Origin: Eledone cirrhosa
Lineage: Eukaryota
Reading direction: 5' to 3'
DNA length: 64,000 nt
NCBI GenBank assembly: GCA_964016885.1
Contig: OZ024757.1
Span: 23,684,001 to 23,748,000 of the forward strand
The position numbers and the translations under genes are program-made. The notes under the pieces are model-generated. The model was not told where the DNA came from, made no database searches, and worked only from the letters and a program-made list of their open reading frames with translations. This document shows positions 13,273 through 27,358 of this stretch, piece after piece (position 1 is the stretch's first letter; each line of letters starts with the position of its first letter).

Positions 13273-13338
13273 TATTTTATCTGATGAGGACGTACTGAGG
13301 AAACAGCACAGTACCTCTGAAATATATATAATAAAATA
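13273..13338 (+). ncRNA. Minimal hammerhead motif, palindromic stem III ATATATAT
   Basis: TATTTTAT-CTGATGA-[GTACTG/CAGTAC]-GAA-ATATATAT-A-ATAAAATA; perfect 8-bp stem I. Confidence 0.78.
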
Positions 13339-13599
13339 TATTTGATCACATGAATGTCTATATTTATTAATATTTTGAATTAATATATATATATATATAT
13401 ATATATATATATTAGAAACAGTCTGGGTCCAACGGTTGATTTCTTAAGCTCAGCCGTCAAGCACAGACTCTTTCTAATTTAGTCACACTCTACTATCCCA
13501 AGTATTGAGTACTCTGCTGAATAATAGTCTTGCTAGTTTAATACTCATTTAATCCTAACTACAGTAGCATATCATAAACAAAAACATTACAACTTTGCA

Positions 13600-13671
13600 C
13601 CTATCTGATGAGAACATGTCCAAAGGGTTATTATGTAATCTCTTTGATGTCTTTGAAATACGTATAACAGG
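13600..13671 (+). ncRNA. Minimal hammerhead motif, palindromic stem III ATACGTAT
   Basis: CCTAT-CTGATGA-[ACAT..CAAAG/CTTTG..ATGT]-GAA-ATACGTAT-A-ACAGG; AATAAA shortly downstream. Confidence 0.68.
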
Positions 13672-13785
13672 ATTATACAATAAATAGAGGATGTAATTTT
13701 AAAACTGTCTCTCTTCTTCATAATATATATAGAGAGGGTTGGGGAGACAGACAGAGTGATCATCATCATCATCATCATCATTTAA

Positions 13786-14002
13786 CACTTTAGCATTCAA
13801 ATCGGCCATATCCGGCCAGAAATGTCTCACCTCTTTCTGTTCAAACCAGTTGAAACTGGCCGCTTATACTGATGTTAAGGTATTGTTCTCAAAATAAATA
13901 ATATCAAAATCTCAGATTTGATATTACATGAGATAATTATGTAAGATAAAGTGTTTACTACTAAAATACAATAGTATTATGAGTAATGTGAATGTTAAAG
14001 GG
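13786..14002. mobile_element. piggyBac-like (TTAA) MITE; relatives at ~53111-53247 and ~63001-63200
   Basis: TTAA on both sides; imperfect TIRs CACTTTAGCATTCA / TGAATGTTAAAGGG. Confidence 0.65.
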
Positions 14003-14363
14003 TTAAACAGAGTGGGCTGGGAACTTGGGTGGGTGAGGTGCGTAGAGATTGGAGAGGTAAATCTAGGGTTGTGGGTAAGGGGTGGGATGTTAGTGCATGT
14101 GTGTGGTTTTTAGGATATGAGAGGTGTATGGAGGGAAAGGTGGTGCATACTAGATACATGCTTCAACCCGTGCAATATATATACATTAAAGCATCCAAAA
14201 CTATAATGATCCCCAAAAGACAGCTGATGAGTGGAAACTATCCTTGTGTTTGTGTCTTCCAAGTTTCTTATATTTCTCCGGCATGTTTTTTAAATATATA
14301 TATATATATATATATATATATACATACATATATAGAAGTGGTAACACAACAGTTAGTTCACCA

Positions 14364-14406
14364 TACCGAGAACAATTGTTTCACCTTAGCGGGTCTTCAG
14401 CGCGTA
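14364..14406 (-). ncRNA. Minimal hammerhead motif, palindromic stem III ACAATTGT
   Basis: Minus strand: TACGCG-CTGAAGA-CCCGCTAAGGT-GAA-ACAATTGT-T-CTCGGTA. Confidence 0.62.
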
Positions 14407-14477
14407 CTGCAGTACGCGCTGAAGATGGGAAAACCCGTCTAACCCATGCAAGCATGGAAAAGTAGATGTTAAACAGT

Positions 14478-23399: not shown

Positions 23400-24830
23400 T
23401 TATTGTTGGTGATGGTGTGTGTGTGTGTGGGGGGGGTCTTGCTGTTGTTAATTTGTTTGTGGTGGTGGTGGTGTTGTTGTTGTTGTTGTTGGTGGTGGTG
23501 GTGGTGGTGGTTGTGGTGGTGTTGCTGTTGTTATTTTGTTTGTGATGGTGGTGGTGGTTGTGGTGGTGTTGCTGTTGTTGTTATTGGTGGTGGTGGTGCT
23601 GTTGTTATTGGTGGTGGTGGTGGTTGTGGTGGTTGTGGTGGTGTTGCTGTTGTTATTTTGTTTGTGGTGGTGGTGGTGTTGTTATTTTGTTTGTGGTGGT
23701 GGTGATGTTGTTATTGGTGGTGGTGGTGGTGGTGGTTGTGGTGGTGTTGCTGTTGTTATTTTGTTTGTGATGGTGGTGGTGGTGTTGTTATTGGTGGTGG
23801 TGGTGGTGGAGGTTGTGGTGGTGTTGCTGTTGTTGTTATTGGTGGTAGTGGTGCTGTTGTTATTGGTGGTGGTGGTGGTGGAGGTTGTGGTGGTGTTGCT
23901 GTTGTTGTTATTGGTGGTGGTGGTGCTGTTGTTATTGGTGGTGGTGGTGGTGGAGGTTGTGGTGGTGTTGCTGTTGTTGTTATTGGTGGTGGTAGTGCTG
24001 TTGTTATTGGTGGTGGTGGTGGTGGAGGTTGTGGTGGTGTTGCTGTTGTTGTTATTGGTGGTGGTGGTGCTGTTGTTATTGGTGGTGGTGGTGGTGGAGG
24101 TTGTGGTGGTGTTGCTGTTGTTGTTATTAGTGGTGGTGGTGGTGGTGGTGGAGGTGATGGTGGTGATGGTGGTGGTGGTGGTGGTGGTGGTGGTGGTGGG
24201 GATGTTTCTGTTGTTGTTGTTGGTGTTGTGGTTGCTGTTGTTGTTGCTGCTGTTGTTGTTGTTTCAGTTGTTGCTGTTGTTGTGGTTGATGTTGTTATTG
24301 TTGCTACTGCTGCTGTTGTTGCTATTGTTGCTGCTGTTGTTGTTTTCTTATTGTTGTTGCTGTTGCTGTTGTTGTTGCTGCTGCTGCTGCTGCTGTTGTT
24401 GTTGTTGCTGTTGCTATTTTTGTTGCTACTGTTATTGTTGTTGCTATTGTTGTTGTTGTTGTTATGATGTTGCTGTTGTTGGTGTTGCTGCTGTTGTTGC
24501 TGTTGTTGTTGTTATTGTTGTTATGATGTTGCTGCTGCTGTTGCTGCTGTTGTTGCTGTTGCTGTTGCTGTTGTTGTTGTTACTGCTGTTGTTGTTACTG
24601 CTGTTGTTATTGTTGTTGTTGTTGTTGTTGTTGTTGTTGTTGTTGTTGTTGTTGTTGTTATGATGTTGCAGTTGTTGTTGTTGCTGCTGTTGTTGATATT
24701 GTTGCTGCTGTTGTTGTTGTTGTTGTTGTTATGATGTTGCAGTTGTTGTTGTTGCTGATGTTGTTGTTGTTGTTGTTGTTGCTGTTCTTGCTGTTGTTGG
24801 TGTTGCTGTTGTTGTTGTTGTTAGTAGTAG
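23400..24830. repeat. (GGT)/(GTT)/(GCT) trinucleotide complex with a 60-bp higher-order unit
   Basis: Direct inspection. Confidence 0.95.
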
Positions 24831-25189
24831 TGGTGGGCTTCCTTGCTATCTCAGTACCTATTCTTTGTAGAATCTCATGCCTGCTAGCTTCCTTGATATC
24901 AATCTATTGAATAGTGTTATGTGGGGTGGATGGGGGTGGATGGAAGGGAGGAGTGGGGCAGACGGGGGTGGCACGTTGGAGACCAGACAAATAAAATGGC
25001 TGGTCTTGTCTGGTTTGGTCTTGTCATTGTGTTTGTTAATAGTTGTATGGGTGTGTGTGTATGTATGTATGGGTGTGTGTATGTGTGTGTATGTGTGTGT
25101 GTATGTGTGTGTGTTTGTGCGTTTGTGTGTGTTTGTGTGTGCTTATTTATATGTACATTGTAATGGCTTTCCCAATACTCTGTTATTGA

Positions 25190-25899
25190 TCACACATATT
25201 ATATATATTATCACTCATATTATATATATGTATTATCACTCATATATATATACATATTATCACTCATATTATATATATATATATGTATGTGTGTGTGTAT
25301 ATATATAATATATACATATATATATGTATATACTGTATATAATATATACGTATAGTTATATATATATATATATATACATATATATATATGTGTGTGTGTG
25401 TGTGTATATATATATATAAATATATATATATATATATATATATATATATATATATATATATATATATATATAAATATATATATATATATATATATATATA
25501 TATATATATATATATGTGTGTGTGTATATATATATATATATATTATAAATATATATATATATATATATATATATATATATATATATGTATGTATATATAT
25601 ATATATATATATATATGTATATATATATATGACATATATATATATATATATATATATATATATACATATATATATATATATATATATACATATATATATA
25701 TATATATATATATATATATATATATATACATATATATATATACATATACATATATATATATATATATATATATATATATATATATTACATATATTTTATA
25801 TATATATAAAATATATATATATATATATATATATATATATATATATATATATATATATATATATATATATATATATACATATATATATATATATATATA
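25190..25899. repeat. Long (TA)n-rich tract (others at ~10.2-10.5k, 26.6k, 27.4k, 43.5-43.85k)
   Basis: Direct inspection. Confidence 0.95.
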
Positions 25900-26100
25900 C
25901 GAGGGTAATCCCAAAAGGTCTCCAAAGCGATGGGGATGCAGAGAAACTGTTCGTATGGGTGTTGTGATTGGTGCTTCCTTCACTCCCAGCAAGCATGCGC
26001 GCGCTTCTCTGGGATACTCAATCTTGGCCTGGCAGCCATTGAGAATGGAGCTCTCGTTGAACGCTAAAGCTATGTTGGTACTGCAACATCCAGTCCTAAA
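25898..26100 (+). mobile_element. Possible mariner-like terminal fragment
   Basis: Begins TA|CGAGGG at the edge of a (TA)n tract, a mariner-like TIR start; no partner TIR seen. Confidence 0.35.
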
Positions 26101-26537
26101 CAAATGAGGTTGTGTAGGTGTCACAACAAAAAAACACACAGTCCACGCTGTAATGTGGCCATGTAGGTAACACGGTAAAAACCTCCCAGTTCCACACTGT
26201 AAACGTGGTTGGTGTTACGAAGGGCATCCAGCCGTAGAAAACCCGCCAGATAGTCCTATACGAGCAGGACAACCAATCTTGGCTCACGTGGGACAATTCC
26301 CATCTAAACCAATGCTAGCGTGGAAGATAGACGTTTATATATATACACATACATATTTTATTTTCTTCATTTTCCATAGAGTATATATGAATTTCTCTCT
26401 CTCTCTATCTATCTATATATATATATATATATATATATATATATAAAAGACATATATATACATATGGCCTCCAAAAACAACGGTCAATTTTTAAAAGGGG
26501 TACGTCAATGTCTATTTATAAAACTGTTATATATTGT

Positions 26538-26600
26538 ATTTTGTCTGATGAAGGCATACCATAATGTAACTTGGTATCCTTGAAATATATATAATGAAAT
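26538..26600 (+). ncRNA. Minimal hammerhead motif, palindromic stem III ATATATAT
   Basis: ATTTTGT-CTGATGA-[AGG.ATACCA/TGGTAT CCT]-GAA-ATATATAT-A-ATGAAAT; stem I includes G-U pairs. Confidence 0.72.
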
Positions 26601-27287
26601 AAATATGGTTTTATAAATATAGTTTCCATTTATTAATATCGTATATATATATATATATATATATATATATATATATATATATATATATATATATATATAT
26701 ATATATATATATATGTATATATATATATATATATATATATGTATAGAGAGATAGAGAGAGAAATACATATATGTGTAATGGAAAATGAAGAAAATTCTTG
26801 GTACAGGAAGATATATTTGAAAAAAGAGTAGAATGACTTTCCTGGTGGTTGGTTTTCTTGTAAATACTATTAATAAAAATGTCTCTTTGTAACACATTGC
26901 ATTATTACTAACATACTAACGACTAACATACTAACAACTAACATACTAACAACCAGTGAAGTCATTCTCATTTTTTCAAATATACACACAGACACACAGA
27001 CACAAACACACACACATATATATTTATATATGTTTGTGTATGTTTTGACAAATATAATGTAATATAATATATATATATATGATGATGATGATATATACAT
27101 ATATATATGTGTGTGTGTGTGTGTGTGTGTGTGTATATATATATATATATATATATGTAGGAGGTGAGTTTTATTGTAGTACAATAAAGCAATGCAGATA
27201 TCGGATAAGAAGCACTCTACAGTTTGATATGTTGATTTAAAACTGAACTATCCACAAATGTTTTTTAACCTTCATATCATGTCTTCC

Positions 27288-27358
27288 TGTTTTATCTGAT
27301 GAAAATACAAATATTATTGCATGATGATATTTGTTTTTGAAATGCGCATAATAAAATA
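27288..27358 (+). ncRNA. Minimal hammerhead motif, palindromic stem III ATGCGCAT
   Basis: TGTTTTAT-CTGATGA-[ACAAATAT/ATATTTGT]-GAA-ATGCGCAT-A-ATAAAATA. Confidence 0.78.

Follow-up and report, generated by a model that had tools for sequence, protein, structure and literature searches.

What does the variety of stem III signify among the hammerhead-like motifs of Eledone cirrhosa contig OZ024757.1? The window, by which we mean the whole stretch of 64,000 nucleotides that was analysed (23684001-23748000 of a 3.0-Gb animal genome, 37% G+C and rich in microsatellites), holds a series of such motifs, and our subject is the segment of each that lies between A15.1 and U16.1. A preliminary description of the window had held that this segment differs between families while always remaining palindromic, that it covaries for intermolecular pairing, and that each palindrome could restrict cleavage to partners of the same family. 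The motifs are probably dimer-type hammerheads of Penelope-like elements (PLEs), with a stem III selected for pairing with itself rather than for being unique to one family, and with cis pairing provided by the layout of the elements. In the mechanism we propose, two copies of the type I hammerhead of a Penelope-like retroelement or one of its derivatives, present in one transcript, would come together as a double hammerhead and cleave, and selection in the source elements would keep stem III self-pairing, G·U being tolerated and A·C not.

Palindromy is strongly enriched beyond the window. An unbiased sample of 157 stretches of 10 kb, taken at regular positions (1.57 Mb; L-numbers denote sampled loci), was scanned with a descriptor that requires stems I and II and is blind to stem III, with reversed sequence as the control. 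The scan returned 165 motifs against 5 control hits. Stem III was strictly palindromic in 90 of the 165, rising to 110 when G·U pairs were allowed, and in none of the five control hits. Fourteen clusters were seen at two or more loci, and the 11 with even-length loops were counted, two 7-nt families and one cluster of ambiguous register (TAT/G, 3 loci) being left out. The centre of stem III was Watson-Crick in 10 of these 11 families (p=1.5e-5), and in eight of nine once related clades had been merged (p=1.8e-4). Because the centre is unable to pair inside one hairpin, a Watson-Crick centre suggests that the partner is a second copy.

The direction of change at these positions is equally informative. 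One clade pattern matched the genome 32,811 times (control 0), with TRYRYA in 31,739 of the matches; the first 100 matches listed, tallied by eye, comprised TGCGCA (58), TATGTA (22), TATATA (13), TACGCA (4) and others (3). Copies with TG at the centre, which would give G·U in a dimer, number 7,724, compared with 399 that have CA and would give A·C. In the TA lineages, centre-TG copies apart from TGTGCA number up to 7,379 and TACATA has 46, a ratio of about 160:1; among the 100 rows listed, these centre-TG copies are mostly TATGTA. Decay within the TGCGCA family serves as a neutral control for this asymmetry and is itself symmetric, with 345 TGTGCA versus at most 353 mirror variants (p=0.79) and 147 TACGCA versus 134 TGCGTA (p=0.47). 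TACGCA, at four of the first 100 rows listed, was considered as an amplified mismatch variant and discarded, being rare and symmetric with TGCGTA. Only three of the 18 single-nucleotide substitutions in UAUAUA leave pairing complete, UAUGUA among them. Selection for self-pairing of stem III is well supported, and the proposal that covariation is kept for intermolecular pairing stands: the central pair is complementary in nearly all the families counted, and only the pairing-compatible transition has been amplified.

The excess of TATGTA could have arisen without selection for pairing, through founder effects or through site-specific A-to-I editing of the RNA intermediate, but we think this unlikely. 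Such an origin would fit the making of most copies by few source elements, and the amplification of just one of the three wobble-compatible A>G mutants. However, TATGTA has several origins on the tree: when stem III was left out of the alignment, 58 rows required 9 changes between TATATA and TATGTA, compared with a mean of 16.8 after shuffling, and grouping all TATGTA in one clade was rejected (p-AU 3.5e-5). Site-specific editing, moreover, would itself need a duplex at that site. In 30 young copies of the TGCGCA family, A>G changes numbered 24 versus 36 T>C among singletons and 7 versus 21 among shared changes, so T>C is the commoner in the body of this family, as distinct from the TATGTA site. 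An element-wide A>G bias was also tried as the source of the TATGTA excess and rejected, those 30 copies having no sense-strand A>G excess.

In the window itself, the type I hammerhead core (CUGANGA...GAAA...UH, helices I-III) is complete at 13281, 26545, 27296, 11529 and 21710, and partly decayed hammerheads lie at 276, 13605, 23084 and 14400. The principal motifs are as follows.

13273 to 13338, plus strand: type I hammerhead, core at 13281, stem III A-TATATA-U at 13322-13329, H17=A at 13330, 8-bp stem I.
26537 to 26601, plus strand: type I hammerhead, core at 26545, stem III A-TATATA-U at 26585-26592, AGGCATA stem II subfamily.
27288 to 27358, plus strand: type I hammerhead, core at 27296, stem III A-TGCGCA-U at 27342-27349.
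269 to 331, plus strand: degenerate hammerhead, core CTGGTGA at 276, stem III A-TATATA-U at 316-323, AAG(C/A)GCACC stem II subfamily.
13603 to 13668, plus strand: hammerhead, core at 13605, long stem II, stem III A-TACGTA-U at 13658-13665, stem I of 2 bp here.
23080 to 23137, plus strand: hammerhead, core at 23084, stem III A-TGATCA-U at 23125-23132, stem II decayed in this copy.
14367 to 14404, minus strand: minimal hammerhead-like motif, core at 14400, stem III A-CAATTG-U at 14379-14372, U17, one stem I mismatch.
11498 to 11533, minus strand: minimal hammerhead, core at 11529, stem III A-CG-U at 11506-11503, U17, 4-bp stem I.
2159 to 2241, no strand assigned: 83-nt hairpin with GAAA-CTTAAG-TA on each arm and no CUGANGA core.
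22310 to 22351, plus strand: hammerhead of a repeated family, site 22314, non-palindromic stem III A-GAAC-U at 22341-22346, U17.
21412 to 21459, plus strand: hammerhead-like motif, site 21416, 7-nt non-palindromic stem III CTGCTGG.
2 to 69, minus strand: hammerhead at site 63, 7-nt non-palindromic stem III CCTTTGG, within a hairpin at 1-121, with relatives at L043 and L110.

All nine k-mers that had been listed for the window are where they were reported, and eight lie in hammerhead motifs with the palindromes given; the site at 2213 does not, having no CUGANGA. Self-complementarity holds for those eight, but the non-palindromic motifs at 22314, 21416 and 63 (minus) had been left off the list. 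Different palindromes do occur in different families, but palindrome and family do not correspond one-to-one. Each of the three ATATATAT sites has its own stem II sequence, and two of them, 13322 and 26585, belong to separate clades. The hammerhead at 13273-13338 belongs to the GGACGTAC stem II subfamily, and its family gave 51 matches with 40 of 951 candidates scored. Stem II of the 23084 motif is intact in relatives at L056 and L112, and relatives of the 14400 motif (L082, L083, L103) have a 4-bp stem I. Further copies of the CG family occur at 21710 (minus) and at about 13142 (plus, broken core), and within 13049-13338 the broken-core copy directly precedes the 13281 motif, both being on one strand. 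A second copy of the 21416 motif (CTGCTGG) was not found in the sampled loci. Site 2213 is one arm of the 2159-2241 hairpin, whose sole sampled relative, L180, has CTTGAG in place of CTTAAG; judging from its sequence, the hairpin is likely to derive from a copy in which truncation and inversion took place within stem II. A second hairpin, 63 nt long and near-perfect, terminates an abundant repeat at 47145-47207, and its core word has 42 hits across loci. Relatives of this hairpin (L034, L103, L106, L180) have CAGAAGA in place of CTGAAGA before the stem, and a variable turn point; it is possibly another inverted 5'-truncation junction.

Could a single copy do the cutting? Monomer cleavage might be aided by tertiary contacts or proteins, with palindromy partly a relic or a means of avoiding misfolding. 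The folding model used here has neither tertiary contacts nor magnesium, and the dimer folds are predictions only. In co-folding, a double hammerhead was the best predicted fold for 13281 and for 27296; for the latter the predicted probability of the A15.1-U16.1 pair rose from 0.001 in the monomer to 0.89 in the dimer, with stem I formed between copies in the best fold. Closure of stem III in the monomer was at most 0.006 for all the even-length motifs modelled, which argues against monomer action, as do the complementary centre and the G·U/A·C asymmetry at positions unable to pair inside one hairpin. Monomer action is favoured by the weak cleavage of engineered dimers of a minimal motif, described in the accessible part of PMC4209133, by the 7-nt families, in which a 3-bp hairpin is able to close (P=0.43 for the CCACTGG monomer), and by the GAAC/GGAC family, which has no paired centre. 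On balance we consider it improbable. A stem III that is unstable in the monomer and self-complementary right through the loop is not a feature of the GAAC/GGAC or 7-nt families.

Among the first matches listed for the GAAC/GGAC family, tallied by eye, none of 100 was palindromic (80, 18 and 2 others), and U17 was present in about half of the copies listed. The centre in these families (window 22314; L061, L089) is purine-purine, and a GGAC dimer would form tandem G·A pairs (-8.6 versus -4.5 kcal/mol for GAAC, relative values); in the folding model, such pairs are a possible non-canonical stand-in for a palindrome. Families with a 7-nt stem III were seen at L047:7740, L043:2800 and L256:3172, and the loops CCACTGG, CCAGTGG and CAGACTG are palindromes with a single unpaired central base, which could act as monomer or as dimer.

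The more ambitious proposal, that the palindromes form a selected, orthogonal code restricting cleavage to partners of the same family, does not survive, and we regard it as very improbable. It can draw on the prediction that 188 of the 210 pairs among 21 representative motifs are incompatible at stem III. On this prediction distant families are insulated, as is expected of any two diverged palindromes; the insulation looks incidental, and is likely to be a by-product of their divergence in both stems. Also in favour of a code, sharing among 4-nt loops is no higher than chance (1 of 10, versus 0.7-1.0 expected). Against this, the same palindromes recur in families whose flanks are unrelated: TATATA is found in such families, CTAG in two and TATGTA in several. 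With lineages hand-chosen from the sample and the window, 18 of 45 pairs of 6-nt lineages were compatible versus 0.9-1.3 expected for random palindromes, and after merging clade A the figure was 4 of 21 versus 0.4-0.6. Stem II varies in sequence and length while stem III remains TAYRTA-like, and switches between TATATA and TATGTA occur inside clades as well as from one clade to another, the two being predicted to pair with each other as well as with themselves. Indeed, 13281 and 26545, which belong to separate clades, were predicted to form a double hammerhead with each other (0.47/0.80) more readily than either with itself (0.20/0.33 and 0.24/0.33). A family of 17,761 copies, GAAC/GGAC, lacks a palindrome in the rows listed. 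We see no sign of selection that would keep stem III unique to one family.

The comparison also brings stem I into view. According to the dimer predictions, both stem III and stem I would form between the two copies, and since stem I is formed in this way partner choice is likely to be set by stem I as well as stem III, a role that the preliminary description overlooks. Family B also has TATATA, but its stem I is predicted not to cross-pair and would keep it separate. Conversely, the young TGCGCA family and the TATATA/TATGTA families have stems I that are 8-bp-compatible, and stem III alone sets them apart (relative energies of -1.6 and -7.0 kcal/mol for the heterodimers, and of -17.4 and -9 to -10 kcal/mol for the homodimers), which speaks for a code. 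One might go further and suppose that stems III and I jointly define pairing groups rather than families, tens of thousands of TATATA/TATGTA copies making up one cross-reactive pool able to cut in trans, from which the young TGCGCA element, having the same stem I, would have been selected to depart by a change in stem III alone; we consider this extension improbable. TATATA, TATGTA, TACATA and TGCGCA on one stem I, and TATATA on two stems I, are pairs that could separate the roles of the two stems in partner choice.

Pairing within a family would be a consequence of how the elements are built: intact ones carry the motif as direct repeats at a spacing of 3.9 kb, which would supply the partner in cis. 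At L268, three TGCGCA motifs on the same strand (972, 4868, 8761) surround two copies of an 821-aa open reading frame (ORF) with a 3.9-kb period. The TGCGCA family carries this ORF; over a 233-residue query, identity was 99-100% in each of the 150 matches scored. Its structural model (pLDDT 76) has a telomerase-like reverse transcriptase (RT) fold, the top seven fold matches being telomerase RTs. Sequence searches of Pfam and the PDB with the TGCGCA-family ORF gave no RT or GIY-YIG hits; a homologue, P0012, matches PF01541 (GIY-YIG) below the cut-off (E=0.003), and YFG...R was read by eye at the C-terminus of the ORF. A Penelope-like layout is present, with partial tandems (pseudo-long terminal repeats, pLTRs), inverted pairs, 5' truncation and a hammerhead in the repeat. 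The TGCGCA copy in the window represents the 3' end of a young, 5'-truncated Penelope-like element and includes an inverted piece (27152-27226); from 27223 to 27393 the sequence shares 90.7% identity with the repeat found in intact TGCGCA elements. The CGCG family consists of 311-nt units in tandem, and members of the CTAG family frequently form direct repeats. A protein link at L253 for the CTAG family was not counted, the hit lying inside an interrupted ORF. A clear hammerhead was seldom near the 30 best GIY-YIG loci (L237 has one), so these loci did not tie motif families to ORFs. PLE-associated small hammerheads, according to Lunse, Weinberg and Breaker (RNA Biol), reportedly have a palindromic, very short loop III and cleave as dimers, and the tandem layout is said to be thought to supply the partner. 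At L269 there are two TATGTA subfamily variants and at L270 a TGCGCA and a TATGTA motif, same-strand neighbours 205 and 429 nt apart; these are natural candidates for mixed dimers.

Several observations weigh against a dimer-type PLE hammerhead with a selected stem III and cis pairing. The link to PLEs is direct for the TGCGCA family and depends on a single locus for the 13281 family, where homology to the PLE endonuclease end lies 1,169 nt upstream of the motif in one relative (L010); among the window families, it covers these two. Among the 165 sampled motifs, 32 had a direct partner of the same family within 5 kb, 42 had inverted partners only and 91 had none; as 133 of 165 were without a same-strand partner, cis pairing would be restricted to those copies, a minority, that are intact or in tandem. 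The TATGTA group was put to the test after the first tree had already been seen, and its origins could be overcounted if subfamilies have recombined. The wobble-compatible variants TGTATA and TATATG were absent from the 63 six-nt loops sampled, so pairing alone is no explanation of which variants were amplified. The GAAC/GGAC family reached its copy number without a Watson-Crick centre, and the homodimers of TGATCA, CG, GAAC, GGAC and the TATGTA motif of L022 gave no predicted double hammerhead (P<=0.02).

Varied palindromic stems and the idea of dimers are already published, in 2011 and 2014. In the accessible sections of Perreault et al. 2011 (PMC3088659), Fig. S8C has different palindromes across and within species, with two each in Schistosoma and Aedes, and the vast majority of repeat-type hammerheads with a palindromic stem III/loop III would pair as a dimer; this variety is the observation made again for the present window, and those sections contain neither genome-wide counts nor a claim of a family code. 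The hammerheads in metazoan PLE pLTRs are described, in the available text of Cervera and de la Pena 2014 (PMC4209133), as having a palindromic helix III and many variable families per genome, with a proposed action as dimers; reviews say the same. The motifs here resemble them in being type I with a long helix II, a short or absent helix III, a palindromic 15.2-16.2 and loop 3, and mostly solo or inverted copies, direct repeats being few (there they flank an RT ORF at a distance of about 3 kb); they differ in a helix II of up to 30-50 nt and a palindromic insert of 6-8 nt. A tandem and inverted PLE layout is likewise described in the portion available of PMC8557442. Animal non-LTR retrozymes, to judge from what is accessible of PMC7229834 and bioRxiv 10.64898/2026.07.22.740005, are similar in their short tandem units and type I hammerheads, are dimer-dependent in amphibians and are proposed to be derivatives of PLEs; unlike them, the TGCGCA motif of the window is part of an autonomous, coding 3.9-kb element. 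The count of G·U versus A·C variants and the test of family specificity come from the present analysis and do not appear in the accessible text of PMC4209133. A literature search, with subscription papers largely outside its reach, turned up nothing on hammerhead heterodimers or a family code. What is new here is a genome-scale signature of selection at positions that pair only between copies, with a built-in neutral control, and it supports a real dimer function in elements whose cleavage in vitro has been reported as weak; the family code, which would have been the surprising part, fails.

The remainder of the window is largely repetitive. Of 267 matches in an Rfam scan, the 150 listed included no hammerhead family; they were of low score and came chiefly from microRNA models driven by microsatellites. 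Repeat finding was dominated by microsatellites and by a 20-bp unit present in an array of about 180 copies at 33320-37150, and long simple repeats of trinucleotide type at 29084-31560 and 23450-24900 give rise to spurious long ORFs. Two similar fragments of a non-LTR retrotransposon lie at 6824-7663 (minus) and 38700-39281 (plus), the former with a zf-RVT match below the cut-off. Likely further exons of an E2F-family gene, without a Pfam hit, are found at 47440-48147 and 58620-60146, and a likely exon of that gene at 55916-56464 (plus) matches Pfam E2F_TDP with E=2.6e-8.

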